A stretch of DNA of 64,000 nt from positions 416,001-480,000 of the forward strand of contig OZ250150.1 in NCBI GenBank assembly GCA_965237675.1, written 5' to 3'. The DNA comes from Candidatus Latescibacterota bacterium. GTDB taxonomy: Bacteria; Latescibacterota; UBA2968; GCA-2709665. Positions 37,790 to 60,096 of the stretch are shown here, piece after piece (within the stretch, counting starts at the first letter, position 1; every line of letters begins with the position of its first letter). The translations under genes were made by a program, and so were the position numbers. The notes beneath the pieces were generated by a model. It was not told the origin of the DNA. It saw nothing but the letters and a program-made list of their open reading frames with translations, and ran no database searches.

Positions 37790-37908
37790 AACTGGTCAGC
37801 AGGCATATCGGCAAATTTGTCGTGAATCGGGAAGTGGAAGCAAAGACAGTCGTTTTGTCTCGGATGATTGATGCGCTCCAGCGATACCTCTAACAAATGG
37901 TTGAAAAG

Positions 37909-38020
37909 GTGGAGCAGACATTCTTGTCTGCTCACATACATCAAACCGAAATCACAGAATCCCGTGTCCGGGCAAGCCACGACTCACCGCCGTCTCCCCC
38001 ACTGGCAAAAGGACGGCGCT
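37909..38020 (+). pseudogene. REP palindrome plus 5' fragment of a REP-associated tyrosine transposase (RAYT)
   Basis: GTGGAGCAGACA-TTCT-TGTCTGCTC followed by codons HRRLPHWQKDGA, a typical RAYT N-terminus, fused into hsdM. Confidence 0.55.
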
Positions 38021-39202
38021 TGCCACCGACGCCTTTCCCGCCAGCGAGTTCGACTTCATGTTGTCCAATCCGCCCTACGGCAAAAGTTGGAAAGGCGACC
38101 TGGAACGCATGGGCGGGAAGTCAGGTATCCGGGATCCCCGTTTTATCGTCGAGCACGAGGGCGACCCGGAACACTCCCTGATTACCCGTTCCAGCGACGG
38201 ACAGATGATGTTCCTGGCCAATATGCTGAGCAAGATGAAGCAGGACAGGACGAGAGCAACATCCGCCGGTGGATCATCGAGAACGACTGGCTGGAGGCCA
38301 TTGTTGCGTTGCCGCTCAACATGTTTTACAACACCGGCATCGCCACGTACATCTGGGTGTTGACGAACCGCAAACCCGCGCATCGCCGTGGCAAAGTGCA
38401 ACTCATCGACGCCACGCAATGGTCCAGACCGCTACGCAAGAATCTCGGCAACAAGAACTGCGAACTGTCGGACGATGACGTGACGCGGATCTGCGATACC
38501 TTTCTCGCCTTTGAGGAGAACGAGCAGTCGAAGATCTTCCCCAACGAGACCTTCGGCTACTGGAAGGTCACGGTCGACCGGCCCTTGCGGCTCAGCGTAG
38601 ACCTGTCGCCGGACCATCGCGAACGCTTTCGAGCCGCCTGTCACGACGCTAGGGAAGAGCCGCTTGCAGACGTCATCGATCGTGTAGCATTGGTCCTAGG
38701 CGCTGGGCCTCACAGTGACTTCAACCAGTTCCTGGACGTCGTTGCAAAGTACGCCCCTGAGTGCGGCGTTAAACTGACAGCCGGACGCACAAAGCTGCTT
38801 CAGTCTGCCCTGGCATCCCGCGAAAACGCCGCCGAGCCCATTGTAAAAAGGTTCCATCGTCCGGGAAACGTCGAACCCGACTCGATACGTGGTCTGGTTG
38901 AAACAACTGTAGACGGCAGGCGACGGGTCGTCGAGTACGAACCCGACACCGAACTGCGCGACACCGAGCAGGTGCCTTTGCTCGAAGAGCGCGGTATCGA
39001 GCGCTTCCTGCGCCGAGAGGTGCTGCCCTATGCTCCTGAAGCCTGGTACGAGCCGAGCAGTGTCAAGGTCGGCTACGAAATCAGCTTCACGCGCTACTTC
39101 TACAAACCGCAGCCGATGCGTACCCTCGAAGAAATACGGGCCGACATTCTGGCGCTGGAGCGGGAAACAGAGGGACTTTTGGAGGAAATTCTCGGCGAGT
39201 AA
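38019..39202 (+). pseudogene. hsdM: Type I RM methyltransferase HsdM: 5'-truncated, internal deletion and frameshift
   Basis: DAFPASEFDFMLSNPPYGKSWK..LSKMKQ, then frame change at ~38240 to AGQDESNIRRWIIENDWLEAIVALP.NMFYNTGIATY...GYEISFTRYFYKP. The N-terminal half including motif I is absent. Confidence 0.88.
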
Positions 39203-39682
39203 ATCCAAACGGCGCCGTAATTTAACGCAGCCCTTTACATGGAAACCATTGTTTCCCATATTAAACGCTGCCTTTAATAAGGCCGCGGTCATGCGCTATA
39301 GTGAACGTAGCCTTCAACGTAAATCATACAGACGCACGAGCCTCTTAACGCACACTAATAGATTTGGAAGAACGGGAGGGGGAAAGCCTCGCGTACCGAA
39401 TCACCCCTACACGTAACGTTCACCGGCCGAATCGAATCCTCGCTTAAATTCATTTAGGCCGAAGTTAAAATGCTGGTACAGGATTCCGAACACTTAATGG
39501 AGGAGAATATCGGAGTCCGTGGCTTATGACCGATTGACAGAAAGGAACGTGCCCGCCGTACTCGGCAGACAATCCCTTCGCCACTGCCGCACAATAGTAA
39601 GTTTGCTCAAAAAGCAAAATTGCAGTTAAATTAGTTGACGCAATTAGCATTCACTTTTTAACGTGTCAGGATTGCCGTTGCG

Positions 39683-39979
39683 ATGATTTTCAATGACCTG
39701 ATCCAGGAATTGAACGAAGACGTGCGAAATGCAATCGATGAACTCTTCAATGCTGCATGGACGAATCAGAGTCATCCACAGGATTTGCTTCTCATTGACC
39801 AACATGGATACTATGACAACGTGTTTGCAGGTGTTCCGGAGAACCCTAATGTGATCGGACCCGGAGAGATAGGCTTCAGCGAAGATACATTCTACGAATT
39901 TATCGACATATTCTCTGTCGATATGCGAACACTATACATCATATGGCTCCGCTCCTCCCCATTCTCGTCCCGTGTTTAG
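39683..39979 (+). pseudogene. Hypothetical protein, probably a 3'-truncated fragment
   Basis: Protein-like for about 75 aa, then runs into unrelated opposite-strand sequence. Confidence 0.4.
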
Positions 39980-40165
39980 ATCATCACTTCATACAGGGTA
40001 TCCTGTTTTAAATCGACAAAAGCACATTCACGAATGCGAGTTACAAACCCTATCCCCAATTCATAGATCCTTTCTCCCGAATCCGAACCACATACGATTC
40101 TTCCATGGGCTCTACATGACTAACGTCAACTATTTTTTCTGTTCAACGACAATTAGAATTCCCGA

Positions 40166-40930
40166 TCAGTGGTGATGTTTGTGGTGTTTTTGTGCGTGTT
40201 CGAGTCGGTAGCTTTTGAGGTTCATATCGATGATGATGGCGTGATGTACGAGTCGGTCGATCACCGCGGCGGTAGTCATAGGGTCCTTGAAGATGGCCTC
40301 CCATCCGGAGAAGGGCAGGTTTGAAGTGATCATGACGCTTGCTCGCTCGTAGCGATGTGCCAGGAGGGCGAAGAGGACTTCCATCTCTTCGCGGCTGTGC
40401 TGGACGTAGCCGATATCGTCGAGGAGGAGGGCATCGTATTTGGCAAAGCGTTTGAGGAGGCGTGGCAAGCGCAGATCACGTTTGGCCAGAAGGAGTTCCT
40501 GTACCAGCAGGTTGCAGGGCGTGAACAGGATGCGGCGTCCCTGATGGATGAGGGTCTGCGCGATGGCACAAAGCAGATGGGTTTTCCCGCTGCCCGGGGG
40601 CCCGAAGGCGAGCACATTTTCCGTCCGGTCGAGGAAGGCGCCGTCCACAAGGGTTGCGACGAGGGCGTTTTGGGGTGCGGGCAGTCGTGTGCGGTCAAAC
40701 ATCTCCAGGCTTTTCTCCAACGGCAGCTTCGACTCGCGTAGGAAGCGGAGGGTGCGGTTGTGTTGGCGCACCTCGCATTCTTGCTGAAGCAGGTCCAGGA
40801 GATAGTGCTCATAGCTTTGTCCTTCCCGTCTTGCCAGTTCGGCCTGCTGTGCAAAGGCTTGCCGTATGGTGGGCAGGCGCAACGTCTTGAGACAGCCCAC
40901 CAGGTCGGATCGCAAACGATCGGTGCTCAT
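40166..40930 (-). CDS. istB: IS21 helper ATPase IstB
   Basis: GPPGSGKTHL, LLLDDIGY, RYERAS.MITSNL.FS.W..IF.DPMTTAAVIDRLVHH, SYR. Confidence 0.93.
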   Translation of the reverse strand: MSTDRLRSDLVGCLKTLRLPTIRQAFAQQAELARREGQSYEHYLLDLLQQECEVRQHNRTLRFLRESKLPLEKSLEMFDRTRLPAPQNALVATLVDGAFLDRTENVLAFGPPGSGKTHLLCAIAQTLIHQGRRILFTPCNLLVQELLLAKRDLRLPRLLKRFAKYDALLLDDIGYVQHSREEMEVLFALLAHRYERASVMITSNLPFSGWEAIFKDPMTTAAVIDRLVHHAIIIDMNLKSYRLEHAQKHHKHHH

Positions 40931-42120
40931 CGGGCGGCCACCTCCAGTGGGTGCAGGAGCCCATCGTAGGGGTTCAGATCTACCGAAGGGATGGCGACGT
41001 CGGGGATGATGGGCACGTCGGCTTGTTGCTGCCCGATGAGCGTTTCGACGGCTTCGGCGCTTTTGAGGCTATCCTGTCGCAGAAGATGACAAAGGGCCTG
41101 TTCCACCTTGGTTTGGCTCTCCTTGGCGGCAAGGTGGAGGATGCGCAGATATGCACTGTCGGCACGCCGTGGGGTATGATGGGCTCGCAGGCTGTCGTAG
41201 GCCATCCGGAAGCGGCTGGTGGGAAACAGGTCCGCACGGTAGCGATAGTTTTCAAAAGCGCCGGGCTTACGCACCAGCCAGTCGATGATATGCCGGTACT
41301 GGATCAGGTGGCGGCTTTCCCCACGCAGCCGGGGCAGGCGCTCGAGAAAGCGGGCGCCATACCACACCTCGATGTGTTCGGCGTGGACACGCACCTCCAC
41401 CGTCTCCCCGATCAGGCGGCTGTTGACCGAGTAGACGTTGTGGACCACGCGGATGGTGCTGCTTTTCCCGACTTTGACCCGCAGGCGCTTGCAGGTCTCC
41501 AGACGCCTTTGGGGAAGGGGACGCAACAGGGCCAACTCTTCCTGCACGCGATCCTTCCGGCCGGCGTTGAGTTGGGAAAGCAGACGGCGTACAAAGCGCT
41601 CATAGGATCTGCGGGTGTCAAACGCCCGGGAGCCACGCAACATCAGGGCCTGGTCCAGGGCCTGCTTGAAGCGGTAGTGACGCTGCTCCACGTCGCCATT
41701 CTCGTGTGGCTTGGCAGCCTGGGTCGCACGGGCTTCCAAGGCCAAGTGGGACAGCAGCGCCCGATAACGTGCGGTGAAGATCTCCTGGCGCCCCACATCC
41801 TGAACCGCCGCACTGAGCCGGTCCGTCTGGTGGGTACGGGGCACGCCGCCAAGCTCCCAAAGCGCCTGCTGCAGCCCTCCACTGAGGCTCTCAAAGCTCT
41901 CGGAGAAGCAGATGGAGGCCGTCTCCCAGTTGGAATACGTCAGCACGAAGGGGTAGACCAAATGATCGAAAGGCAAGCCACCGAGGGTCACACATAGGTC
42001 GTTGAGACACGTAAAATCCGACTGGCAACGGTCTGAGGGATAGTGCACCTGAGGGAAAAATACCTCCCGAGGAGGACCGGCTGTGGCACGCCACACCTTC
42101 ACGCGGCGCTGTAACGTGCG
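40927..42120 (-). pseudogene. istA: IS21 transposase IstA lacking its N-terminal HTH region
   Basis: RTLQRRVK.WR, QSDFT, LTYSNWE, ELGGVP..HQTDRLSAA, HENGDVEQ, RKPGAF..YRYR..LFP. Confidence 0.85.
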
Positions 42121-43174
42121 AAACGATTGCTTGCGTTGTGGCATCAGTCCCAGGCGATGGAGGGTGAGGGTTTCTTCGAGCCCTTCCTCCAGGCTGTTGA
42201 GGGCCGAAGCATTCATCAGGGTCAGGGAGGGTTTGAGGGCATACAGCGCGGCTTTGGCTTCTTTGTGCGTGTCCATGTCGTAGGCACTTTGAAGCGCTTT
42301 CTTGACCTCACTCTGCTGTGTCTTGGGCAAATAGGCGATCACGTTCTCCCGTTTGTGCCACTGACAGCGTTGAATGGCGACATAACCGGAAAGGGCTTTT
42401 GTGAGGGCACTATACAATCCCTTGGAGCCATCGATGAGGCAAAGCAGCCCCTGATGATACACCAACCCGCGATGGATGAGCGAATCCACAAAACTGGCGG
42501 CACACGCGCTCATTTTCGCTGGCGGCCTGGACAAAGCCCAGTGGGATCTTGTGTCCCTGGATCGTCACGCCAAGGGCGATGATCATTTCCTGATCGGCAA
42601 AGGTCTTGCCATCCATAAACAGCGCCACGAGGTCATAGCCGGACAGAGGCCGTTCTTGAAACTGCTTCAGTTTTGCCCCTGAAGCCTTAATAAACCGCCT
42701 CGAGACCGTCGACGAAGACAGGCCAAACGCCTCTGGCACCGCCTCGGCGCAACTCGCGTAAGAACGCGTGGCAATGCCGTTGACCACGCGAAGCAGCAGC
42801 CCTTCATCCATCGTTTTCGGGCGCTGCAGGCGGCGATAGACCTCTAAAGGGACTTCTACATTGGCTTCCACGTCGCGCACCCGCGGCACAGAAATGGGCA
42901 CTTTCTGATCTGACAAATACACCGATCCTGGTTGCGTGCCCCACCGACGATTCGGGGTCTTTCCCCCTTTTCGACTGTTTTTCTGGCCCGACAACCCGTT
43001 GACCTCGCCCTGTAGAGCTTCTTTCACAGCTTCCAAACCAAGCGGGATCAGCGCCTGGATCAATGCCACGCGGACGTCCAGTTCCGACAGCGCTTCTTCA
43101 AGATCCATGCCGGAGGTTAAACCGGCATCCGTATTCAACTTGACTTCACGGAGGTTCGACGGTACTTTTTTCAT
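42115..43174 (-). pseudogene. IS256-family transposase, frameshifted and 3'-truncated
   Basis: PRVRD, GLSSSTVSR, LFMDG, ALGV..QG.K.PLG, SEN; frameshift at ~42492; then IDGSKGL, QRCQWHKRENV, SLEEGLEETLT, SFRT. Confidence 0.88.
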
Positions 43175-43448
43175 CACAGGCTCCTTTGCTTGAGGATACA
43201 GTTTTCTTCCGCGAGACAACTGCATCCAATTTACATCGGAGCCTCTTCTATTTCAACTAAGATAGATACAATCCCGCCTTGGGGAAGGGGTCTGGGTTAG
43301 TTTACGAACCGCTTGCCATACCGGGAATTTTAATTGTCGTTAGAACGGATTTTTAAATGTTGCTAATCATCTACAATCACAACATCTGAAGAATGCATGC
43401 AAAACTCCATACTGTTTAGTAATATCCAGTTGAGATTACAGAAAAGAG

Positions 43449-44348
43449 ATGATGATGGCAAACGACATTATAAATACATTGATCGAAGAGCGTATTGATG
43501 TATTCCGTTTTGCGTTTTCCATAAGTGCGAAAGCACTCTTTCGCGATGACGATAAATTGAATAAGATCAGACATCCGGGTGAATTCGGTGTATATAGAGA
43601 AGCAATTGTTCGAGATTTTCTACAATCATTCTTGCCTCAAAAATTGGCTATTGATACAGGATTCGTTGTAAATGCTTTGGGAGAAACCAGCAAGCAGATA
43701 GATCTGGTTGTCTACGATCCATCGTTTACTCCGTATCTGGAATCGAAAAATCGTCAGAGGTTCTTTCCTGTAGAAACAGTAATAGCTGTTGGGGAGGTGC
43801 GATCCGATGTGAACCGTGCCCAATTTGAAGATGCTTTGATTCGCATATCAGAAGTAAAGAAGATGCGCGCAAATTTGCCCAAAGAGGCAGGCGTAGTAAA
43901 AAAGTGGTACGGCTTGGGAGATCATGAATACGATCCAGACAAGATTCCGTTTGATCAAGTCTTTACATTCCTATTGTGTAATCGTATCAATTTCCCTCTA
44001 AGGGAGACTTTCCCATCACAACTGAACGAAATATACAAGTCTGTGAAGTATACCCATCGTCATAACGCGGTACTTAGCCTTGAGGATGGTCTTGTTCACT
44101 ATGTAGGTGAGTTTCCACCGGGCGAGTTCGCAGATTGCTCTTTCCCCACTTTGCCAGGGGGAAATCAGCCCAACCGTAACAAATGGATACATAGTTACGA
44201 TGATACCTACATCCCCTTAAAGATGTTCTGTTCAGATCTATTTATGCATGCTCTGCACTGCACGATAGGACATTGCAATTTGATTGAGTATGCTAAATCC
44301 GACAGTAGGCACCAATTCTTGGAGGAGGGACCGAAGTCTGATGAGTGA
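43449..44348 (+). CDS. DUF6602-like protein (predicted PD-(D/E)xK-type nuclease fold)
   Basis: HPGEFG.YRE.IVRDFL..FLP....IDTGFVV, SKQIDLVVYD, FFPVE.V.AVGEVRS; low GC. Confidence 0.72.
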   Translation: MMMANDIINTLIEERIDVFRFAFSISAKALFRDDDKLNKIRHPGEFGVYREAIVRDFLQSFLPQKLAIDTGFVVNALGETSKQIDLVVYDPSFTPYLESKNRQRFFPVETVIAVGEVRSDVNRAQFEDALIRISEVKKMRANLPKEAGVVKKWYGLGDHEYDPDKIPFDQVFTFLLCNRINFPLRETFPSQLNEIYKSVKYTHRHNAVLSLEDGLVHYVGEFPPGEFADCSFPTLPGGNQPNRNKWIHSYDDTYIPLKMFCSDLFMHALHCTIGHCNLIEYAKSDSRHQFLEEGPKSDE

Positions 44349-44612
44349 TTGGGCCTAACCCAAAACCATTTTCACCAACTATCAGGCTTACCATCCTACA
44401 TTTCCCCTTGTCAAGTTCAGTATGTAATCCCCATTGATTTTGTCTGATGTTATGACGGTTGCGAGCATGTCCCTTACGAATATACGCAATGGTAGGATCA
44501 CCGATGTCGAATCGGCAATCAGGGCCAATGGCTTAACCAATAGAACCAACCATTATACGTTTGCAGGATAGACGGAAAAAAGCCTGTCAGATTGCTGAGA
44601 GTGAGGTCAAGA

Positions 44613-45095
44613 ATGGACTTGATGACGTTTTTTAAGGATTTCCATTTGGATAAAGTCAAGATAGGCCCCAATTGGGCGAACGCGGAAATCAGCTTTAAAC
44701 AGAATGATCGAGATGCTGCATGGGAAATGTACGTCGAGATGCTGACGAGAATCGTCACCCAACCGATGCCCTCTGAAACGGGCGACGAAAAGACGGCTCT
44801 CGACAGTGTATACGCACTTTTCGGAATTACTCGCGAGATTCTGCGACGGCATGGACGCGACACTGTGAACTTCAGCAAGGTTGCCATACCGGTACTTAAC
44901 CAAATTGTGCGACCATTCACTGCAAAATGGCATAAGGAAAGTATAGCGGGAGCTTTTGCTTGCGAGACCAAACGACTCGAATTCCGGGAAGAACTCGAAA
45001 ACCTGCAGTGTGAATTGCGTAACTACAACTCATTGTTGGCAAAGATTGCAGAAGTGGAAGATCTGACCAACTTGGAGCGGACAGACCCCAGTTGA
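44613..45095 (+). CDS. Conserved helical hypothetical protein, first gene of the TIR operon
   Basis: DRDAAWEMYVEMLTRIVTQP, ALDSVYALF..TREILR, VLNQIVRPFTAKWH, FREELE.LQ.EL..Y; RBS GAGG. Confidence 0.75.
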   Translation: MDLMTFFKDFHLDKVKIGPNWANAEISFKQNDRDAAWEMYVEMLTRIVTQPMPSETGDEKTALDSVYALFGITREILRRHGRDTVNFSKVAIPVLNQIVRPFTAKWHKESIAGAFACETKRLEFREELENLQCELRNYNSLLAKIAEVEDLTNLERTDPS

Positions 45096-45125
45096 CGAAA
45101 AACGCGCTACAAAGGAGTAAACACA

Positions 45126-45611
45126 ATGGCCGAAGAAACGAGAAACATCTTTATAAGTCACATCCACGAAGATGATGAAGGTCTGGGCAAGCTCAAGAGT
45201 CTCTTGAAGGACAACGGAATGACCATCAGGGATTATTCTATAAATAGGGATAACCCCAACAATGCCCATTCGGAAAACTACATCAAGTCGGAAATTCTCG
45301 CACCACGCATACGGCAATCAAGTACTCTAGCTGTATATATCTCGCCTGAAACCAAAGATAGTCCGTGGGTAGACTGGGAAATCGAGTATGCACATAAACA
45401 TGGCAAACGCATTGTTGGCGTGTGGGCGCACGGTGAATCGGGCTGCGATGTTCCAGATGCCTTGGAGAAATATGCGGACGCTATAGTTGGTTGGACTGGT
45501 AATCGAATCATGGATGCCATAAACGGAAGAATAGATGGTTGGGAAAACCCCGACGGAACAAAGAAAACGCGTCGTGAAATCGAGCGATATAGTTGTGGAA
45601 AAAACCGATAG
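45126..45611 (+). CDS. TIR-domain protein (DUF1863/ThsB-like)
   Basis: NIFISH..ED, YIK..I...IRQSS.L.V.I..ET..SPWVDWEIEYA (catalytic Glu), KRIVGV; RBS AAGGAG. Confidence 0.88.
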   Translation: MAEETRNIFISHIHEDDEGLGKLKSLLKDNGMTIRDYSINRDNPNNAHSENYIKSEILAPRIRQSSTLAVYISPETKDSPWVDWEIEYAHKHGKRIVGVWAHGESGCDVPDALEKYADAIVGWTGNRIMDAINGRIDGWENPDGTKKTRREIERYSCGKNR

Positions 45612-46221
45612 TCGAAGGCTGTTTTCGTATGTAATAGCTCGTGACTACGGATTCGCGCCCAATCCGTTTTTCGGTGTGTGCACATTGGCCACATGCAAAC
45701 CGAGGATTCGTCAAACAGCTTCCATTGGGGACTGGATCATAGGCACAGGCAGCAGCAAATACGGTAGACAAGGATACCTGATATTCGCCATGCGCATAAC
45801 CGAAACATTGACATTTAATGAGTACTGTAACAACGAGCGGTTTCAAAGAAAAAAGCCAAACATGATGGGCAGCATAAAACAGGCATTTGGCGACAATATT
45901 TACTTTGTGGCTGACGACGGGCAATGGGAGCAGCTAGATTCTCATCACAGCTACCGAGACGGTTCACCAAATACGCATAATATCCAGAATGACACAAAAA
46001 CAGATCGAGTCCTATGCAGCACAGACTTTGTATATTGGGGAAGATCTGGACCTAAAATACCCCAAGAATTAAGGGACTATCGTGGATGCGACATTTGTTG
46101 CCTAACACAGGGGCACAAATGTCGGTTCCCGAATGGTCTGGTTGACCGCTTTATTGGGTGGATACGATCTCTAAACCAACGTGGATATCTTGACGCACCT
46201 ATAGAGTGGAAGACACCATGA
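45595..46221 (+). CDS. Nucleotide modification associated domain 2 (Nmad2) protein
   Basis: RLFSYVIARDYGFAPNPFFG.CTLATCKP.IR..A.IGDWIIG, GDNIY, VL.S..F.YWG. Confidence 0.85.
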   Translation: MEKTDSRRLFSYVIARDYGFAPNPFFGVCTLATCKPRIRQTASIGDWIIGTGSSKYGRQGYLIFAMRITETLTFNEYCNNERFQRKKPNMMGSIKQAFGDNIYFVADDGQWEQLDSHHSYRDGSPNTHNIQNDTKTDRVLCSTDFVYWGRSGPKIPQELRDYRGCDICCLTQGHKCRFPNGLVDRFIGWIRSLNQRGYLDAPIEWKTP

Positions 46222-47393
46222 CCTTGAGACCGTCACCATCTGTGGTAGTCAAGCGTGGTAAATTGGACATGGAGACGTCTATGCTAATTAGCAACTATAT
46301 GCGTGAGATCGAGCACACGGATAGACTTCCTCAAGATAAATTGCAACCAGTTTTGATGGGGTTATTTGGAGAAATAGGCAGTATCATGGCGACGGTGAAG
46401 AAGGCCCACAGGGAACGAGCCGCGTACGCCGGATACCAGCAGGCGGTAGAAGAAGAGTTCGGTGATGTACTTTGGTATTTTGCGACACTGTGTCGACGTC
46501 TCGACACCGGTGTTGACATCATTCTTTCCGAAACCATAGATCAATCCAAATACAATAAGGTCGTCGCGGCAAGTGATCACTTGGATGGCCCTGTTTCTCA
46601 GGTCTCCTCCGTGGGTCAATTACATGATCTTGACAAGACGCTACTTAATCTTGGAGAAGCTACAGCCGCGCTGCTTGGAATCGAGAGATTGGACGAACGC
46701 ACGGAAGATTCGCTGCGCAATTTTTCAGATTGCTACCTGCAAGCCCTTCAAGCCGCCCGGGTGAGCTTTTCGAAGGTTGTTCGGATGAACATCGACAAGG
46801 TATGCGGGCGTTTTCGCGAGCCCGATATAGAGGCTTTGCCAACATTTGACAGCAGCTTTACGCAAGAGGAAAGGCTTCCCCAAGATTTCAAGATTGAAAT
46901 CAGTCAGCGCGCGAGCGGACAAAGTTACCTTCAATGGAACAATGTATTCATTGGGGATCCACTCACGGACAATATCGATGATGAAGATGGCTATAGATTC
47001 CACGATGTGTTTCATTTTGCACATGCTGCAATACTTCACTGGTCTCCTACGTTTCGCGCCTTGATAAAGCACAAACGAAAAAGTGATCCCAAGGTCGATG
47101 AGGTTCAAGATGGGGGCAGGGCGAGGGTTGTTGAGGAAGGACTTACTGCGTGGATATTCTCGTGCGCTAAAAATCTCGATTTTTTTCGGGGCCACAGTAC
47201 CGTCTCGTTTGATTTACTAAAAACCGTGCAACAGTTCGTCCGGGGATATGAAGTTCAAAAATGTCCACTAAAACTGTGGGAACGGGCTATTCTAGACGGC
47301 TACACAGTATTTAGGCAAGTCCGAGAGAACGACGGCGGGATCGTAATTGGAGATCGTGAAGCCCGTACGATTAAGTACCATTCAACTGATTGA
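46218..47393 (+). CDS. MazG-like pyrophosphohydrolase fused to MazG-C domain
   Basis: GLFGEIGS..KK, EEFGDVLWYF; C-domain DGYRFHDVFH (DxYRxHDxxH), WSP.FR.L.K.KRKS, DGGRA..VEEG; ATGA overlap with Nmad2. Confidence 0.88.
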   Translation: MTLRPSPSVVVKRGKLDMETSMLISNYMREIEHTDRLPQDKLQPVLMGLFGEIGSIMATVKKAHRERAAYAGYQQAVEEEFGDVLWYFATLCRRLDTGVDIILSETIDQSKYNKVVAASDHLDGPVSQVSSVGQLHDLDKTLLNLGEATAALLGIERLDERTEDSLRNFSDCYLQALQAARVSFSKVVRMNIDKVCGRFREPDIEALPTFDSSFTQEERLPQDFKIEISQRASGQSYLQWNNVFIGDPLTDNIDDEDGYRFHDVFHFAHAAILHWSPTFRALIKHKRKSDPKVDEVQDGGRARVVEEGLTAWIFSCAKNLDFFRGHSTVSFDLLKTVQQFVRGYEVQKCPLKLWERAILDGYTVFRQVRENDGGIVIGDREARTIKYHSTD

Positions 47394-47402
47394 GACTTGC
47401 TC

Positions 47403-48050
47403 ATGGATCTGTCGGGTTTTTTGAAGGAACTGAAGGAATTGGATTTTGAGAACACCTTTAATCCTTACACCCATCGCTGTGATGTTCACGATCTGGTCGA
47501 TGCCCCCGAACGCCGTCTACGTCTGCTGCAGTCTATGCTAGAAATGGCAACAGAAACAGAAATTGACTCAATGTGGATAGGACGTGATCTCGGATATCGT
47601 GGCGGTAGGCGAACAGGCCTTGCTTTTACGGATGATGTACATATTGGACAACACGGCGCCCGTTGGGGGTTATCTGTTCAGCGGCCGACCAAAAACGAAA
47701 TGGCTGCCGAGCGGACAGCGGGTGTTATCTGGACTGTTCTGTCCCAGGTTAAAGTGTCCGTTTTTCTCTGGAATGTATTCCCACTGCACCCGCATGAAGG
47801 CGGTAATCCTTTCAGTAATCGATCTCATAACTCTGTTGAACGCCAGACAGGGGAAATGCTACTTTCTCAACTACTACTCCTCCTAAATCCGCGCCGACTA
47901 GTTGCAATCGGCAATGATGCGGCACGTACTGTACGTCAGTTAAGCGACAATCTGGAATTCATCCATGTACGACATCCCAGCTATGGCGGAAAGGCACAAT
48001 TTTTAGCCCAAATGTGCGAGTTATACAAACTCGAATCAGACCTCTTTTAG
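47403..48050 (+). CDS. Uracil-DNA glycosylase superfamily protein
   Basis: FNPY, GRDLGYRGGRRTGLAFT, ERTA, LWNVFPLHPH..NR, VAIGN.A, RHPSYGG. Confidence 0.85.
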   Translation: MDLSGFLKELKELDFENTFNPYTHRCDVHDLVDAPERRLRLLQSMLEMATETEIDSMWIGRDLGYRGGRRTGLAFTDDVHIGQHGARWGLSVQRPTKNEMAAERTAGVIWTVLSQVKVSVFLWNVFPLHPHEGGNPFSNRSHNSVERQTGEMLLSQLLLLLNPRRLVAIGNDAARTVRQLSDNLEFIHVRHPSYGGKAQFLAQMCELYKLESDLF

Positions 48051-48103
48051 ACGTCTCCGTAATCAACTATGCTGACCCCTTCAGGGCAATATGGGAACCA
48101 TTG

Positions 48104-49510
48104 ATGGGTTTGAACCATAAATCCTACCCTTCCTACAAACCTTCCGGTATACCCTGGTTAGGCAAAGTGCCCGTCAACTGGGACGTAATGCAAGTTGGAC
48201 GCATCGGGGTATTTTTAAAGGGGCATGGAGGAACGAAAGAGGACCAAGTACATGAAGGCGTCCCATGCATTCGATATGGAGACATATATACTTCGTACAA
48301 GTTTCACATTCTGGATAGTTGCGCCTTTGTGTCTGAAGTGAGAGCATTGGACTATACTCCGATACAGTATGGAGATGTACTATTCGCTGGTTCAGGTGAG
48401 TCCATCGAAGAAATTGGAAAATCTGCGGTAAACCTTTTGAAAGAAAAAACTTGCTGTGGAGGAGATGTTATCCTTTTTCGGCCTGATATTGAAATCAATG
48501 CGAGATTTTCTGGATACGCCATTGACTCCCCTTATGCCCAGTATCAGAAATCGTGCATGGGACGTGGCATCACAGTGATGCACATATATAGTGACGAACT
48601 AAAGTACTTGTGGATAGCACTACCTCCCCTCCCTGAACAAGCCGCCATCGTCCGCTATCTCGACCACATCGACGAACGCATCCGCCGATACGTTAGCGCG
48701 AATGAGCGGCTCATCCGGTTGCTTGAGGAAAAGAAGCAAGCCGTCATTGATCGCGCCGTCACACGCGGCCTGGATTCGAACGTCCGGCCTAAGCCTTCGA
48801 GTGTCCGGTGGCTGCCAAATATACCGACGCATTGGGAGGTACTGCGCCTCAAGGCGCTGGTGCGCATTCGGTATGGGTTAGGGCAGCCGCCTCGCGAATC
48901 GGCAACGGGGCTTCCACTGATCCGCGCGACTAACATTGAGCGAGGGCGTATAATTGACAAGGGCCTTATCCACGTAGATCCCTCTGATGTGCCGGCCGGT
49001 CGTGACGCTCTGCTGAAAGCGCAGGAAATCATCGTTGTAAGGAGCGGAGCATACACCGCCGACTCGGCCATCATACCCAAAGCATTCGTGGGAGCAGTAG
49101 CTGGTTATGACATGGTCGTAACGGTCACGACCTCAATACCTCAGTTTGTTGCCTTTGTATTTCTTTCCAAGTACTTGCGAGATAACCAGTGGGCTGTTTT
49201 GAGCACCCGATCCGCGCAGCCTCACTTGAACGCCGAAGAACTTGGATCAGCGTTGGTGTTAGTGCCTCCGATCGCCGAACAAGCCGCTATAGTTGAGTAT
49301 CTACATAAGGCCACCACTGACATCGAGTCCGCCATCACCCGCACCCGCCGTCAGATCGAGTTGCTCCAAGAGTACCGTACGCGATTGATTTCCGATCTGG
49401 TCACCGGCAAACTCGATGTGCGCGACGCGGTGTCCAGTTTGCCAGCTGAAACGAACGCAATGGATCTACATTGCTCCGTGGCAGCTCCTGACAGAGGAGA
49501 TTCTGGATGA
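48104..49510 (+). CDS. hsdS: Type I RM specificity subunit HsdS
   Basis: YPSYKPSGIPWLGKVP..W; two TRDs each followed by P..EQAAIV.YL; AVTRGL; YRTRLISDLVTGKLDVRDA. Confidence 0.93.
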   Translation: MGLNHKSYPSYKPSGIPWLGKVPVNWDVMQVGRIGVFLKGHGGTKEDQVHEGVPCIRYGDIYTSYKFHILDSCAFVSEVRALDYTPIQYGDVLFAGSGESIEEIGKSAVNLLKEKTCCGGDVILFRPDIEINARFSGYAIDSPYAQYQKSCMGRGITVMHIYSDELKYLWIALPPLPEQAAIVRYLDHIDERIRRYVSANERLIRLLEEKKQAVIDRAVTRGLDSNVRPKPSSVRWLPNIPTHWEVLRLKALVRIRYGLGQPPRESATGLPLIRATNIERGRIIDKGLIHVDPSDVPAGRDALLKAQEIIVVRSGAYTADSAIIPKAFVGAVAGYDMVVTVTTSIPQFVAFVFLSKYLRDNQWAVLSTRSAQPHLNAEELGSALVLVPPIAEQAAIVEYLHKATTDIESAITRTRRQIELLQEYRTRLISDLVTGKLDVRDAVSSLPAETNAMDLHCSVAAPDRGDSG

Positions 49511-51618
49511 AGGCTCTTCGCTTTCGGGTTCGGAATTTTCGCAATATCGATGACAGCGACTGGATAGCCCTGGAGATAGTCACTGCCTTTGTCGGCCGCA
49601 ATGAATCGGGCAAGACCTCGCTGCTTAAGGCGCTACACAAATTCAATCCAGCTACTCCTGAACCTTATGATGCACAGCGCGAGTTCCCGCGGGACCGCTA
49701 CACTTCGGATTACGTTTCCAATGGATCCAATGGTGGAGACTGGCCCGTTTGTTCGGTCGAGTTTGAGATTCCGGAGGAACTTCGGATTGAAATTGGCAAA
49801 ATACTTGAGGAAGACGGCGAAACTCCCGAGAAGGTCACTGCGACCCGCTATTACGATGGCTCCATCGAGTTTCAGTATGCGTCCACAATACAGGAGAAAC
49901 CGCTCGCACCCGAACCGGTGTTTGACGCACTTGATGCATTCGCGTCAAGCGCTCGTCGGCTTGTGGCACCAGACCCAAGTCAGGAGGAATACACGGCACA
50001 GCAGCGTACGGAACTGGCAAATTGGGCGACGGGATGGAAGGACAATTTGAAGGCCATAGTCGATCTCCGAGGCAATGAAGGAGCAAATTGGCTGACCAAA
50101 CTGCGCCACGAAGTGGAGAGCAAGAGTAACCCGGAAACTGCCGATATGGTAGAAGCGTTTCAACGGACGATTGAGCCAATTCTTGAGGCAGCAAAGAAAC
50201 CCTCAATCACAGACCAAGCTAACAAGAAAATCGAACGCATCCTCCCTGTTTTAATCTACTTCGAGAATTACGGCATACTCGATAGCGCCATCTGGCTGCC
50301 GCGTTTTCTCGAAGATCTGAGGCGGGATCCGAACGATTCTCGTGTGCGCACTATCAACGCGATGTTCAAACATGTCGGGCTCGATCCGAAAGAGATAGCG
50401 GAACTTGGCGACGAGCGGACCCGCGAATCCCGCCGGCAGGGTTACCAGCCCGAGCCTGAGCAGATCGCCGAAGACCAGGAGCGCAAGGACAGGCGAGCCA
50501 TTCTGTTGAATGCCGCTTCGCTGGACATCAGTAAAAAGTTCTCCACCTGGTGGTCGCAGAGGCGCCACAAGATTCGATATCACGCCGATGGCGACAGCTT
50601 TCGGATCTGGATTGCCGACGACCGTCGTCCGGACGTAGTAATCGAGCTTGAAGCCCGTAGCAAGGGATTCCAGTGGTTCTTTTCATTTTACCTCGTCTTT
50701 CTTGTCGAGTCTGAAGGTGGACATAAGAATTCGATTCTCCTGCTCGACGAGCCTGGTTTACACCTCCATCCTACAGCTCAGCAGGAGTTAATTGCGTTCT
50801 TCGAGAAGCTCTCCGAAACTAACCAGCTTGCCTATACAACCCACTCGCCGTTCCTGATTGATGGTGAACGCTTGCATAGGGTCAGACCGGTCACCGAGGA
50901 CGAATTCGGCCATTCGCACATCACGGCTGAGACATGGCCGAGGGACCGCGAGACGATTTTCCCGCTTCAGGCCGCAGCGGGATACGCAATGATCCGTGGT
51001 CTTTTTCAACATCGCAAAAACGTCCTTGTAGAGGGAATGAGCGACTTCTACTACCTGCAGGCGCTATCGCAGCAGTGCGCGAAATCGGGTCGCAATGCGT
51101 TACCGGAGGATATCTACATCACCCCCTGTGGCGGCACAAAGCATGTCGGACACTTCGCGTCAATGTTTCTAGGCCATGAGGTTCGGCCACTTGTTCTTCT
51201 GGACGGGGATGATGCAGGACGGGCTCGTCAAGACGCTCTGATTAAGGAGCTATATGTCAATCATAGATCAAATATTGTGATGCTGGATGACGTACTGAAC
51301 CGACCTGGGCAAAAGGTCGAAATAGAGGATATCCTGGGCGAGGCGCTTATCGTTTCAGGTGTTGAAAGGGTCCTGAAGCAATCTTTCCATCTCCAAGATC
51401 GGGACCGCTCGGTCGGAAGCCTAACGAGTCAAATTAAGGCCGCTGCCAAGCGCCAGAGCATCGAACTACCGGTAGGTTGGAAGGCATCGGCCGCCCTGGA
51501 TCTTGTATCGACGTGGGCAGAAGAAGGCACTACACTTGCGGACGAAGTTCTCGACACCGCTGCCACGTTGTTTTCAGTGCTAAACGAAAGATTCGAAAGT
51601 GTTAATTCTTCGGGCTGA
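49507..51618 (+). CDS. OLD-family ABC ATPase + TOPRIM nuclease
   Basis: VRNFRNI, GRNESGKT, RSKGFQWF, LLLDEPGLHLHP, TTHSPF; TOPRIM LVEGMSD and DGD..G; ATGA overlap with hsdS. Confidence 0.85.
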   Translation: MKALRFRVRNFRNIDDSDWIALEIVTAFVGRNESGKTSLLKALHKFNPATPEPYDAQREFPRDRYTSDYVSNGSNGGDWPVCSVEFEIPEELRIEIGKILEEDGETPEKVTATRYYDGSIEFQYASTIQEKPLAPEPVFDALDAFASSARRLVAPDPSQEEYTAQQRTELANWATGWKDNLKAIVDLRGNEGANWLTKLRHEVESKSNPETADMVEAFQRTIEPILEAAKKPSITDQANKKIERILPVLIYFENYGILDSAIWLPRFLEDLRRDPNDSRVRTINAMFKHVGLDPKEIAELGDERTRESRRQGYQPEPEQIAEDQERKDRRAILLNAASLDISKKFSTWWSQRRHKIRYHADGDSFRIWIADDRRPDVVIELEARSKGFQWFFSFYLVFLVESEGGHKNSILLLDEPGLHLHPTAQQELIAFFEKLSETNQLAYTTHSPFLIDGERLHRVRPVTEDEFGHSHITAETWPRDRETIFPLQAAAGYAMIRGLFQHRKNVLVEGMSDFYYLQALSQQCAKSGRNALPEDIYITPCGGTKHVGHFASMFLGHEVRPLVLLDGDDAGRARQDALIKELYVNHRSNIVMLDDVLNRPGQKVEIEDILGEALIVSGVERVLKQSFHLQDRDRSVGSLTSQIKAAAKRQSIELPVGWKASAALDLVSTWAEEGTTLADEVLDTAATLFSVLNERFESVNSSG

Positions 51619-52584: not shown

Positions 52585-54051
52585 ATGGCAACCAATAGAA
52601 ACCATGACTACCTTGTCGGCCTGGTACGGGAGTTGCGCAACCTGCCACATGAGACCGAATGGGTCGAATTCAAGGTCAATCACCGCAAGCCGCAGACCAT
52701 CGGGCAGTACGTCTCGGCGCTTTCCAACGCGGCAGCCCTGCACGACAAGGTACACGCATATATTATGTGGGGCGTGGAAAATGGAACTCACGACATTGTT
52801 GGCACAGACTTTTCTCCCGCTGTTGCGAAGAAGGGCAACGAACCGCTGGAGACTTGGTTACTCCGGTTATTGAAACCACGCATAGACTTCCGTTTCCACG
52901 AAGTAATGATTGACGGGAAGCGAATCGTGATTATGGAGATTGATCCTGCGTTTCAACACCCGGTCGCGTTCGAAGGAGTGGAGTTTATTCGGGTAGGCAG
53001 CACCCGGAGAAAACTAAAGGACTATCCGGAAAAGGAACGAGCACTCTGGCGCGTTTTCGACCGGGTGAGCTTCGAAGATGGCATCGCCGCCGAACGAGTA
53101 AGTGACGGTGATGTTCTGTCAATGATCGACTACCCTGCGTACTTCGATTTGCGTGAATTGCCGCTACCTGACGGCCGCGATGCCATCCTGCACGCATTGC
53201 ACAATGAAAGGCTTATCGCCCCCGGCGAAGCGGGCGGCTTCGACATAACGAACGTGGGCGCCATTCTTTTCGCCAGGGACCTCGGCGACTTCCCGAATCT
53301 TAAGCGCAAAGCCATGCGCGTCATACAGTACCGGGGTAAGGGCCGGATAGACACATTGAGAGAGCAGGAAGGCGTTCGCGGCTATGCGGTTGGATTCAAA
53401 GGAATTATCGACTACATCATGGCGCTCGTGCCCTCGAACGAAGTAATCCAACAGGCCTTGCGAACGACGTTGCCGATGTTCCCCGACCTGGCCATTCGAG
53501 AACTCGTTGCCAACGCGCTCATCCATCAGGACTTTCTCGTCACCGGTTCGGGACCGATGGTAGAGATCTTTGAGAATCGTATAGAGATTACGAACCCAGG
53601 GGAGCCACTGGTAGACACGGAACGCTTTCTCGACAGCCCACCCAAATCCCGAAACGAAGCGCTCGCCTCGCTGATGCGCCAGGTTCGCATCTGCGAGGAA
53701 CGAGGCAGCGGGATCGACAAGGTTGTCCTTGAAATTGAGTCATACCATTTGCCGGCGCCGCTTTTCGAGGTTCCGCCCGGTTCTACCCGTGCGGTCCTCT
53801 TTGCCCACAAGAACCTGGCTGACATGGACGGAGAGGAGCGGGTGAGAGCCTGCTACCTGCATGCATGCCTCAAGTATGTGATGCGAGATTTCCTGACCAA
53901 TGCGTCACTTCGAGAAAGGTTCGGCATCAAGCCAAACAACAAGGCTGTCGCGTCTCGCCGCATTCGCGAGGCCATGGACGCCGGCATGATCAAGCCGTTT
54001 GACGAGAATGCCTCCCGAAGATTGATGAAATACGTCCCATACTGGGCCTGA
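52585..54051 (+). CDS. AlbA_2 (Schlafen-like) + HATPase_c_4 + wHTH ATP-binding protein
   Basis: ETEWVEFK, SALSN.A, WGV, RELVANALIHQDF, IEITNPG, RNE.LA, EERGSGI, KYVPYWA. Confidence 0.88.
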   Translation: MATNRNHDYLVGLVRELRNLPHETEWVEFKVNHRKPQTIGQYVSALSNAAALHDKVHAYIMWGVENGTHDIVGTDFSPAVAKKGNEPLETWLLRLLKPRIDFRFHEVMIDGKRIVIMEIDPAFQHPVAFEGVEFIRVGSTRRKLKDYPEKERALWRVFDRVSFEDGIAAERVSDGDVLSMIDYPAYFDLRELPLPDGRDAILHALHNERLIAPGEAGGFDITNVGAILFARDLGDFPNLKRKAMRVIQYRGKGRIDTLREQEGVRGYAVGFKGIIDYIMALVPSNEVIQQALRTTLPMFPDLAIRELVANALIHQDFLVTGSGPMVEIFENRIEITNPGEPLVDTERFLDSPPKSRNEALASLMRQVRICEERGSGIDKVVLEIESYHLPAPLFEVPPGSTRAVLFAHKNLADMDGEERVRACYLHACLKYVMRDFLTNASLRERFGIKPNNKAVASRRIREAMDAGMIKPFDENASRRLMKYVPYWA

Positions 54052-54246
54052 CCTCGATTGGCCGGGATTGATCGACGGCCCGACGTCTCGGGAACCGCCA
54101 GGAATTGTATCAATTGATGGATAAATGATCGAACGAACCCGAAAATGGCTGAATAGGCCGACATATCAATATTTTTCAATAAGTTACGCCACAGAAGAGC
54201 AATAGACGGCCAATTGATCAGGAAACACCCGACAGACGTTGAAATT

Positions 54247-54300
54247 CTATAACCCGTTAATTTTATTGCATTTGTTTAATTGACGGGTAATTGACTGGAA
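54247..54300 (+). repeat. 54-bp core repeat, copy 2
   Basis: Identical to 60035-60088; two mismatches to 52340-52393. Confidence 0.9.
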
Positions 54301-54307
54301 ACGTCCC

Positions 54308-54424
54308 GTGACCTACACCTTCCTCGCGCGACTCATCTCAAATATGACTGCCAGCGAGACAGATGTACGCGAGGCGGCCAGTCTAGCAACGGAAGGCCCA
54401 AACTTCAGTCTGACCTATGCCTAG
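54308..54424 (+). pseudogene. hsdR-start/hsdS-end fusion scar 2
   Basis: (V/M)TYTF-LARLISNMTASETDVREAASLATE; its stop overlaps the start of the next gene. Confidence 0.62.
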
Positions 54425-55604
54425 CCGACGGACAAAAATAAGCTTGCAGCCCGGTGTCCTGCAGTGGGCACGAGAACGTGCTCGCGTCAGCCGTGACGAA
54501 CTGGCTCGCAAGATGCAGGTCAAGATCGACCGCGTCGTAGAGTGGGAGGAAACCGGCAACATCAGCGTTGCCCAGGCAGATAGGCTCGCGGAACGCACAC
54601 ATACCCCGCTTGGGTTACTGTACCTCTCGAAGCCACCGGACGACATCCTGCCTATACCCGACTTCAGAACACGTCACGCCGATGCCCTACCGCTACGTCC
54701 GAGCGTCGACCTGCTGGAAACGGTGCACGCGATGCAGCGACGACAGGACTGGATGCGAGAAGAACTGATCAGGAACGGCGCAGAACCACTGGAGTTCGTC
54801 GGTGGATTCAGCCGTACATACGGTCACGTGGAAGTTGCAAGTGCAATGCGAGATGTGCTGCGAATTCCAGATGGGTGGGCGGAGGACATTTCTACCTGGA
54901 TCGCTTCCCTCAGGTTCCTTCGGAGCAAATTGGACGCCGCCGGCGTGCTCGTGGTTTTCAATGGTGTCGTAGGCAACAGTACCAGCAGAAAGCTCGACAC
55001 CGACGAGTTTCAGGGCTTCGCCCTGGTGGACGAATACGCCCCATTGATATTCGTAAACAACGCAGATTACATAGCGGCCAAGATGTTCACGCTTGCTCAC
55101 GAACTGGCGCATGTCTTTGTGGGTGAGTCGGGCGTATCCCACTTTGAAAGGATGCAACCATCCCACAATGATACGGAGCGATTCTGCGATCAGGCTGCAG
55201 CGGAGTTTCTTGTACCCGAGTCCAGTTTTCGCGATCTTTGGAACCTTGATGGCCGTAATACCTTGGCGCCTACAAGTGTTCCATTCGAGTCGATTGCACG
55301 TCAATTCAAGGTAAGCGCAATCGTGGCTGCCCGGCGTGCCCTGGACCTGGACCTGATTGACCTCGACACCTTTTTGGGCTTTTATGAAAACCACAAGCAA
55401 CAAGGGGGTACCATTCAGCCGACAACCGACGGTGGCAATTTTTGGAATACTCAGAGGTGGCGCATCGGTCCACGGTTCGCGGCTGCAGTCGCGCGCGCGA
55501 CAAAAGAAGAACGCCTGACATATCGAGAAGAAGCGTGTTCTCTTGCCGGGCTTAGGGGTCAGTCCTTTGAAAATCTGGCCGTCAAGTTGGATATTCCACT
55601 ATGA
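54417..55604 (+). CDS. XRE-HTH + ImmA/IrrE-family metallopeptidase
   Basis: PGVLQWARER...WE.G, IPDFR, GVVGN.T.RKLD..EFQGF, FTLAHELAH (HExxH), E.FC...AAEFLVP, FKVS. Confidence 0.9.
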   Translation: MPSRRTKISLQPGVLQWARERARVSRDELARKMQVKIDRVVEWEETGNISVAQADRLAERTHTPLGLLYLSKPPDDILPIPDFRTRHADALPLRPSVDLLETVHAMQRRQDWMREELIRNGAEPLEFVGGFSRTYGHVEVASAMRDVLRIPDGWAEDISTWIASLRFLRSKLDAAGVLVVFNGVVGNSTSRKLDTDEFQGFALVDEYAPLIFVNNADYIAAKMFTLAHELAHVFVGESGVSHFERMQPSHNDTERFCDQAAAEFLVPESSFRDLWNLDGRNTLAPTSVPFESIARQFKVSAIVAARRALDLDLIDLDTFLGFYENHKQQGGTIQPTTDGGNFWNTQRWRIGPRFAAAVARATKEERLTYREEACSLAGLRGQSFENLAVKLDIPL

Positions 55605-56343: not shown

Positions 56344-56362
56344 CGGCACGAGGAGAAAGGCC

Positions 56363-60088: not shown

Positions 60089-60096
60089 CCTCCTTC

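Follow-up and report, generated by a model that had tools for sequence, protein, structure and literature searches.

A putative mobile defence cassette joining a TIR protein to Nmad2, MazG and UDG-like enzymes in a Latescibacterota genome

What might a TIR protein be doing in one operon with an Nmad2 protein, a MazG pyrophosphohydrolase and a divergent relative of uracil-DNA glycosylase (UDG)? The question is raised by a locus of Candidatus Latescibacterota bacterium (assembly GCA_965237675.1, contig OZ250150.1, positions 416,001 to 480,000 of the forward strand; GTDB lineage Bacteria; Latescibacterota; UBA2968; GCA-2709665). Within this 64,000-nt stretch, which we call the window and whose numbering we use throughout, positions 44613-48050 hold five open reading frames (ORFs), all intact and all on the + strand, that a preliminary description had put forward as a candidate defence system. 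Here, we find that four of these genes form a conserved core that recurs across many bacterial phyla and on plasmids, and that the fifth, encoding a small helical protein, occupies a slot that is filled elsewhere by genes typical of type III Thoeris. We put at roughly 45% the chance that the best overall explanation is a system of three modules: a TIR-Nmad2 sensor and signal-making unit, a receiver or effector, and a nucleotide- and DNA-directed arm.

The operon and its conserved four-gene core

The five genes of the operon are, in order:
44613-45095, + strand: helical protein, 160 amino acids (aa); ATG start with GAGG 6 nt upstream
45126-45611, + strand: ThsB-type (DUF1863) TIR protein, 161 aa; PF08937 with E 2.6e-24; matched by PADLOC as ThsB
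45595-46221, + strand: Nmad2, 208 aa from a GTG start; PF18753 with E 7.5e-71
46218-47393, + strand: MazG+MazG_C fusion, with MazG at about aa 25-115 and MazG_C at about aa 207-389; PF18722 with E 2.7e-81
47403-48050, + strand: UDG-like protein, a divergent member of the UDG superfamily by its profile match, 215 aa; PF03167 at 27.2 bits (cut-off 24.3)

The operon is real. Its genes are separated in turn by a 30-bp gap, a 17-nt overlap between TIR and Nmad2, an ATGA overlap of the Nmad2 stop with the MazG start, and a 9-bp gap, and its G+C content (GC) is 0.45-0.50 over 44500-48000, against 0.53-0.64 in most of the flanks. The ORFs and the GC profile agree with the earlier account of five intact, low-GC, co-oriented genes; the junctions are all as that account gave them, Pfam and PADLOC matches bear out its gene identities, and every catalytic motif that it named is present and kept in at least 97% of 75-80 related sequences. 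A scan of the operon for regulatory signals, which found no sigma-70-like site on the + strand and terminator-like sites at the rate of shuffled sequence, is uninformative.

To place the operon among its relatives, we scanned its MazG protein against one genome per species (185,579 species), confirmed 212 relatives, and examined the closest 80 (53-69% identity), which come from Pseudomonadota, Acidobacteriota, Binatia, Planctomycetota, Bacteroidota, Omnitrophota, Latescibacterota and others. By tblastn, Nmad2 accompanies MazG in 79 of these 80 loci and UDG in 77, and the misses lie mostly at contig ends. TIR likewise stands beside MazG in 77 of 80, and the co-conservation of TIR with Nmad2, MazG and UDG, on which the preliminary description had staked its proposal, therefore holds (77-79 of 80 loci). 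A compact TIR-Nmad2-MazG-UDG block is found in 71 of the 80. Among the 47 loci whose flanks extend for at least 4 kb on either side, which we call well flanked below, the count is 46. Conservation of all five genes as one neighbourhood, the check that the preliminary description had suggested, extends to this four-gene core and stops short of the helical gene, which stands outside it (12 of 80 loci).

The core is not fixed in its order or strand. The arrangement MazG-UDG-TIR-Nmad2-helical is seen in two loci (L142 and L158), and in a third (L141) helical-MazG-UDG is accompanied by Nmad2-TIR on the opposite strand. Parts of the core also keep other company. A Gloeothece plasmid carries a patatin gene, a nucleotide-kinase-like gene, MazG, TIR and Nmad2 together, and a Parabacteroides distasonis plasmid (L179, 3989-9147) has a one-strand array of a hypothetical gene, TIR, Nmad2, a nucleotide-kinase-like gene, a radical-SAM gene and a second hypothetical gene; by family profile, the first gene of this array is not a member of the helical family. 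TIR, Nmad2 and the helical gene occur without MazG-UDG in two loci (L087 and L122). Conversely, plasmid pK03D-1 of Bradyrhizobium elkanii (L162, 4205-11587) has a MazG/MazG_C-UDG pair (37% and 50% identity) without TIR-Nmad2, divergent from a dCTP-deaminase-like gene and adjoining genes for a C1 peptidase, an I42 protease inhibitor, a helix-turn-helix (HTH) protein, a holo-ACP synthase and Shedu.

Several features mark the core as mobile. Relatives are found on 35 plasmid records, and integrases flank 10 loci. Near-identical islands recur across different Pseudomonadota genera (L060, L064-L068, L080 and similar loci), in which an integrase, an HTH gene and TIR-Nmad2-MazG-UDG on one strand are followed by ThsB-SLOG3-TIR_2 on the other strand and by a second integrase; these seven genes seem to move together as a single integrative element. 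An origin in phages was considered and rejected, with zero MazG homologues among 50,697 phage records. The cassette of one enterobacterial locus (L030) found no match in 5,426 E. coli genomes by a DNA search sensitive to identities of at least about 65-70%. A PADLOC tally over 129 of 408 neighbouring ORFs of the related loci shows some defence genes, pAgo, IetS, ThsA, HamA and AbiEii among them; it was made without a background control, and no enrichment is claimed from it.

The modules and the partner slot

The TIR protein matches the PADLOC ThsB model PDLC00418 from end to end (E 4.7e-65, covering 2-155 of 155 positions). In its W84-E85 motif, the tryptophan is kept in 42 of 42 sequences and the glutamate in 41 of 42, and a cysteine in the C-terminal tail, C157, is invariant; the closest solved sequence is 8wcf_A (E 2.4e-5). 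The preliminary description had proposed a search for a match to a named system, and here only the TIR matches, by the ThsB model; no PADLOC model matches Nmad2, MazG or UDG. In Nmad2, the motifs A21-P-N-P24 and T33-C-K-P36 are kept in at least 97% of relatives, and C34, H118, D100-N101, S116 and others are invariant among 51 sequences. An AlphaFold2 model of Nmad2 has a mean predicted local distance difference test score (pLDDT) of 93.9, and its top Foldseek hits are ASCH, McrB-N, YTH, EVE/THYN1 and the PD-T4-3 protein specific for 5-hydroxymethylcytosine, all of them PUA-like modified-base readers. As a lead from this model, Nmad2 may have a PUA/ASCH-like fold of the kind found in modified-base readers.

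Structure prediction places the two proteins together. The predicted TIR-Nmad2 complex has an interface score (ipSAE) of 0.88, against 0.00 for the best of three controls; of 80 solved complexes, 58 reach this mark, as do 2 of 110 mismatched pairs, and these counts hold roughly for the complex here, which was predicted with our own alignments. At least 87% of contacts agree between runs, and the partner pLDDT is at least 90. On the TIR side, the predicted interface includes the tail (152-158) with the invariant C157, and on the Nmad2 side residues 33-34, 117-121 and 132-133, covering the invariant C34 and H118 and the conserved D133. Among eight longer Nmad2 homologues, two are fusions to TIR, one to MazG_C and one to SLOG cluster 2. 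On the strength of the model, it is likely that TIR and Nmad2 form a physical pair; no solved complex of such a pair is known to us.

The third and fourth genes of the core encode enzymes whose motifs are well kept. Although the N-terminal half of the MazG fusion scores only 18.0 bits with PF03819 (MazG), below the cut-off of 22 bits, its metal motif G51-E52 ... E79-E80-x-G82-D83 is kept in at least 97% of 80 sequences, as is the MazG_C motif Y259-R-F-H-D-V-F-H266. Searched against the PDB, the family profile reaches a MazG-like protein (2q5z, E 0.0013) and dCTP pyrophosphatase 1 (E 0.017), an enzyme that prefers modified dCTPs; the MazG_C half found nothing in the PDB profile search and had no usable Atlas hit.

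The UDG-like protein is assigned to the UDG superfamily by its sequence, through its PF03167 score and motifs A and B. Its conserved motifs are G60-R-D-L-G64 and R190-H-P192-S, and across 44 sequences G60-R-D-L-G64, G67-G-R-R-T-G72, W123-N124, H129 and R190-H-P192 are invariant or nearly so. The single sequence has no match in the PDB at E<=1, and the best hits of the family profile, to family-4 UDGs, are not significant (E 0.16-0.2). Family-4 enzymes use four cysteines to ligate a 4Fe-4S cluster. The protein here lacks that signature, since only one cysteine (C26) is invariant in the 44 sequences, and on this count and on the profile scores we did not assign it to family 4.

The helical protein is of another kind. 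It has no Pfam, PADLOC or NCBIfam match, and 30 of 30 members of its family are likewise without a Pfam match at E<=1. The family comprises 2224 homologous clusters with lengths of 88-280 aa; almost all of the top 120 are about 160 aa long. The AlphaFold2 model (pLDDT 82) is a bundle with helices at 30-44, 59-111 and 118-146, the second of them 53 residues long, and no fold in the PDB matches it (best E 0.44). A language-model search had suggested DUF6650, the ThsG family (rank 9, score 0.85), and this lead was not borne out: PF20355 (DUF6650) matches none of 30 family members at E<=1, and hhalign gives a probability of 0.3% against a thin profile of two DUF6650 sequences from 2 of 401 genomes. 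Among the 80 MazG loci, the helical gene is found in 11 by tblastn and in 11 by jackhmmer, in union the 12 given above, and the copy in one of them (L057) is fragmentary. There, the gene lies upstream of the cassette at 6623-6887 in two frames (tblastn pieces of 50% and 62% identity) and has probably decayed.

Where the helical gene occurs, TIR genes are its usual neighbours. We examined the best 80 of 578 confirmed metagenome relatives. The close upstream neighbour on the same strand is ThsB_TIR in 18 of 38 cases, TIR_2 in 9 and Nmad2 in 6, and the close downstream one is ThsB_TIR in 15 of 30, TIR_2 in 7 and SEFIR in 2. Among loci flanked by 1.5 kb or more on either side, our own iterated TIR profiles place a TIR gene at most two genes away in 24 of 26 and directly adjacent in 18; with laxer flanks, a TIR gene is within two genes in 51 of 65 loci. 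Of 31 longer homologues, 18 are fusions to patatin (phospholipases of about 900 aa with the helical domain at the N-terminus), 2 are joined to ThsB_TIR, and the other 11 are without a Pfam domain. Divergent homologues in three loci (L033, L051 and L030) carry a hydrophobic N-terminal extension. The helical protein is thus a member of a separate, widespread family of TIR partners. A domain that stands beside TIR, either alone or fused to killing domains, shows the pattern expected of a receiver for the TIR product; that the helical protein is such a receiver or effector, rather than the sensor of infection, strikes us as an even bet.

The place of the helical gene is taken by other genes in most relatives. 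A pair of SLOG cluster 2 or 3 and TIR_2 genes lies within 6 kb of the core in 36 of the 47 well-flanked loci and the helical domain in 6 (7 counting L030); 41 of 47 carry either, and a single locus carries both. SLOG cluster 2 proteins go with a 415-aa TIR_2 protein (26 loci each), and SLOG cluster 3 (18 loci) goes with a 382-aa TIR_2 protein (21 loci), to which a second ThsB-type TIR is often added (29 loci). In two loci (L026 and L036) the operon itself takes in the SLOG gene, which shares its strand and separates Nmad2 from MazG; because of this placement and the Nmad2-SLOG fusion, the association is more than the neighbourliness of defence islands. SLOG cluster 2 and 3 genes are absent from the source genome, and the helical gene here fills the slot held elsewhere by the SLOG+TIR_2 pair, which resembles type III Thoeris.

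A proposed mode of action and its competitors

We propose that the operon is a horizontally mobile, probably anti-phage system with three separable modules. The TIR-Nmad2 heterodimer would be its sensor and signal-making unit: Nmad2 would recognise a cue of infection, which is most likely a non-canonical base or nucleotide, and this recognition would free or activate the TIR to produce an NAD-derived signal. The helical protein would serve as receiver or effector for that signal, in a slot that may be taken interchangeably by the SLOG+TIR_2 pair or by patatin fusions. MazG/MazG_C and the UDG-like protein would form a nucleotide- and DNA-directed arm, hydrolysing particular (d)NTPs and excising a particular base from DNA, with the outcome that phage replication would be starved or phage DNA damaged. 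We are fairly confident that the operon is a defence system of this modular build, and its modular architecture has good support; the whole mechanism, with every step as written here, is a good deal more doubtful. What the analysis shows is the gene content, the conserved motifs, the co-occurrence of the modules and a predicted TIR-Nmad2 interface. The role in defence, the direction in which a signal would pass, the substrates and the part played by each arm are inferred, as is the chemistry suggested in the preliminary description, in which an odd nucleotide would be made or depleted and then excised.

Several considerations weigh against this proposal. All of the evidence is computational, drawn from sequences, gene neighbourhoods and predicted structures, and the binding of TIR to Nmad2 is supported by the confidence of a model made with our own alignments. 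The Foldseek matches of Nmad2 are weak, since none reaches E 0.001 (the best is at 0.0099) and the TM-scores are 0.34-0.5, and its PUA/ASCH-like fold is for this reason a lead and not a result. We detect no ligand-binding or toxic domain in the helical protein and no fold match for it. The counts from the 80 loci overstate the independent support, because the set is confined to the closest relatives and includes many copies of a single spreading island. MazG-UDG pairs at about 37% identity also occur without TIR-Nmad2, and a model built on signalling gives MazG-UDG no necessary role. Finally, a protein of the ThsB fold could act on nucleotides as an N-glycosidase instead of synthesising a signal, and there would then be no signalling.

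That last point leads to the main rival, a restriction of modified nucleotides that needs no signal. MazG would hydrolyse an odd dNTP, the TIR would act as a (d)NMP N-glycosidase in the manner of DNPH1 and the nucleoside 2-deoxyribosyltransferases, Nmad2 would bind or process the odd base, the UDG-like protein would excise it from DNA, and the helical or SLOG genes would be an independent neighbour of Thoeris type. Much of what is described above suits this account: all four protein families act on nucleotides or N-glycosidic bonds, the MazG profile reaches dCTP pyrophosphatase 1, Nmad2 resembles modified-base readers, TIR-Nmad2 also teams with nucleotide-kinase-like and radical-SAM genes, and the modules (helical, TIR-Nmad2 and MazG-UDG) can be found separately. 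It is harder to square with a TIR that matches ThsB over its full length and keeps the glutamate of NADase-type enzymes. A single shared pathway is favoured by the way in which the SLOG pair and the helical gene replace each other with almost no overlap, by the SLOG genes inside the operon and by the fusions of Nmad2 to SLOG and to MazG_C, and patatin-type effectors suit signalling and abortive infection better than simple sanitation. On balance, we regard restriction without signalling as rather unlikely. A reading that keeps the signal and gives every enzyme a part in making it is a long shot: MazG and the UDG-like enzyme, with help from Nmad2, would free a non-canonical base or nucleotide of the phage, taken from its dNTP pool or its DNA, the Nmad2-bound TIR would exchange it with the base of NAD+, and the resulting conjugate of base and ADP-ribose would be the alarm that activates the helical protein, the SLOG pair or the patatin fusions. 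In a variant of this idea, Nmad2 may chemically modify the Cys157 tail of the TIR to prime it, by analogy with the ancillary enzymes that act on the cyclase in type II and type IV CBASS.

Two further readings, both unlikely, would remove the operon from defence. In the first, it is a self-modification or epigenetic module of a type I restriction-modification (RM) system, whose enzymes would synthesise a non-canonical base and place it in host DNA, with the UDG-like protein as a base-exchange enzyme. MazG, kinase-like and glycosylase-fold enzymes do occur in phage hypermodification pathways, and the cassette is bracketed by an hsdM remnant and hsdS, here as well as in its closest relative (L001). 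The Pfam names of the type 'nucleotide modification associated' also point this way, and reportedly derive from the base-modification systems predicted by Iyer et al. in 2013. Yet the core has no recognisable base-synthesis or transferase enzyme, hsdS is nearby in 3 of 80 loci and hsdM in 3 of 80, and the core travels, at one copy per genome, on plasmids and integrase-flanked islands and with TIR, SLOG and patatin genes typical of abortive-infection systems; we consider self-modification improbable. The other reading, in which a MazG 'house-cleaning' pyrophosphatase and a DNA-repair UDG lie by chance beside an unrelated TIR, we hold to be very improbable. Both families do include housekeeping members, and the RefSeq names 'nucleoside triphosphate pyrophosphohydrolase family protein' and 'uracil-DNA glycosylase' fit it, but housekeeping genes would not be expected to have so patchy a distribution (212 relatives in 185,579 species genomes), to lie on a low-GC island and on plasmids, or to keep strict synteny with TIR-Nmad2 in 71 of 80 loci, and this UDG is too divergent to match any solved UDG at E<=0.1.

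If the three-module proposal is right, it would have consequences beyond this locus. TIR-based signalling is widespread in bacterial immunity, and to our knowledge every characterised system of this kind pairs the TIR with an effector that kills the cell. Here, the TIR is locked to a protein resembling modified-base readers and to enzymes predicted to act on dNTPs and DNA bases, which would link the sensing or destruction of non-canonical phage nucleotides to TIR signalling and would assign roles to Nmad2, MazG_C and the helical family of 2224 clusters, all three of them uncharacterised. The modules are separable, and the residues suited to point mutation are E85 and C157 of the TIR, C34 and H118 of Nmad2, E52, E79, E80 and D83 of MazG, and D62 and H191 of the UDG-like protein.

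The surrounding island and known systems

The operon lies in a defence island, the base of which is a decayed type I RM locus. The features of this neighbourhood are:
37868-43225: C-terminal hsdM remnant, then the insertion sequence (IS) region, a nested IS21/IS256-type wreck
43449-44348, + strand: DUF6602 protein, 299 aa; PF20247 with E 7e-26; PADLOC PD_DExK (4.4e-33) and NucC (2.8e-25) over the first ~140 residues
about 48092-49510, + strand: hsdS, apparently whole; PADLOC Specificity_I over 4-442 of 448 positions
within 48092-51618, + strand: OLD-family ATPase-TOPRIM protein, 703 aa, its start overlapped by the hsdS stop; AAA_15 and OLD-like_TOPRIM; AriA/Old/GajA-like by PADLOC
52585-55604, + strand, between OLD and DarT: SLFN/AlbA_2 + HATPase_c_4 protein (488 aa) and IrrE/M78 peptidase-like protein (395 aa)
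55687-57424, + strand: DarT (PF14487 with E 6.6e-63), then an overlapping Macro-domain protein
60079-61068: HSDR_N piece, all that is found of hsdR

The preliminary description had placed the operon in an hsdM-hsdS slot among decayed RM and IS genes. The slot is found here and again in the closest relative, which has the same order (hsdM ... helical-TIR-Nmad2-MazG-UDG-hsdS-OLD) and an OLD protein of 75% identity; as noted above, hsdM and hsdS are rare near the other cassettes. Decay holds for hsdM, which is a remnant matching only Pfam positions 191-279 of 311 (intact copies elsewhere in the genome match 3-309), for the hsdR piece and for the IS wreck, but not for hsdS, which is apparently of full length. 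The IS region looks like one IS inserted into another. After the hsdM remnant comes an intact IS21 istB at 40166-40930 on the - strand; beyond it, a single ORF joins a piece of a Mutator-family transposase to a C-terminal piece of IstA, and the rest of the Mutator transposase lies at 42410-43225.

The DUF6602 protein, with its NucC-like nuclease match, was considered as the effector of the operon and rejected, having no homologue in any of the 80 related loci; because of this absence, it is probably an independent defence gene of the nuclease type. The SLFN/AlbA_2 and IrrE/M78 genes are likely further defence or regulatory genes of the island, and DarT and the Macro-domain protein are a toxin-antitoxin defence pair of the DarTG type. 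The Macro gene (56246-57424) lies 8 kb from the operon and beside DarT, lacks the TM-Macro effector architecture, and is read as DarG. Elsewhere in the same genome, about 175 kb before the window (C1:285491-287766; L164 and L166), are two more genes of the ThsB_TIR type, maybe belonging to a second TIR-based system.

An operon of this type has been predicted in print and, as far as the literature searched extends, has not been validated. The preliminary description had put it forward as uncharacterised. It had not gone unnoticed, since the domain set is already named as a predicted defence system in the text available to us of the DefensePredictor study (DeWeirdt, Mahoney, Laub, Science 2026, PMC13092281), where MazG, MazG-C, NMAD and UDG are among eight highlighted predicted systems (Fig. 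6F). According to the same text, these domains are sometimes in defence islands, none is validated, several were predicted earlier by Burroughs et al. (NAR 2015), and MazG-C is called 'a predicted nucleotide kinase'. The operon here, with Nmad2, MazG/MazG_C and a UDG-fold gene together, matches the composition of that predicted nucleotide system (PF18753/PF18722) and has the same domain set. The gene order of the operon drawn there, and a TIR or helical gene in it, are not confirmable from the portion of the paper at hand, whose main text does not contain the word TIR. NMAD also appears among the abbreviations in the Fig. 3C legend for validated E. coli systems, and neither an identity with Nmad2 nor a pairing with TIR is confirmable from that text. 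The preliminary description knew of no experimental characterisation, and the literature searched likewise holds no experimental validation of the gene set, in keeping with the DefensePredictor text, which calls the domains unvalidated; the supplementary tables of PMC13092281 and of 10.64898/2025.12.03.692087 may list the operon or the helical family. MazG, UDG and glycosylase are not mentioned in PMC13069673, 10.64898/2025.12.08.692795 or 10.1101/2024.01.29.577857.

The closest comparison is with Thoeris. In the text available to us, Yirmiya et al. (bioRxiv 2025, 10.64898/2025.12.03.692087) describe types I-XI and 29 putative types, with a TIR and a variable effector as the general design; MazG, Nmad, UDG and patatin find no mention in the main text so far as it was available. 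The preliminary description had stated that no SIR2, TM-macro or caspase Thoeris effector is present. None of the recognised effector domains (SIR2-SLOG, Macro-TM, SLOG, caspase-like, DUF2270, DUF6650, SLATT and others) is found beside the TIR in 21 neighbouring ORFs, save the Macro domain associated with DarT, and to this extent the statement is right; it overlooks the helical family as a candidate receiver or effector. Type III Thoeris combines several TIRs with a SLOG effector (van den Berg et al., Cell Host Microbe 2024, as cited in the accessible text of 10.64898/2025.12.03.692087). This feature is present in 36 of the 47 well-flanked relatives and not in the operon here, which has one TIR and no SLOG. 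The type VI effector ThsG (DUF6650) is described in the same portion of that preprint as small and soluble, with N-terminal transmembrane (TM) helices in some copies. The helical protein is likewise a small (about 160 aa), soluble TIR partner, some of whose homologues have N-terminal hydrophobic helices, but it lacks a match to DUF6650 (PF20355). Like Thoeris at large, the operon sets a ThsB-type TIR with its catalytic glutamate beside a small protein, in a defence island, with a variable effector slot that can hold SLOG, patatin or TM-bearing forms; unlike Thoeris, it has its TIR locked to Nmad2 and to the MazG-UDG pair.

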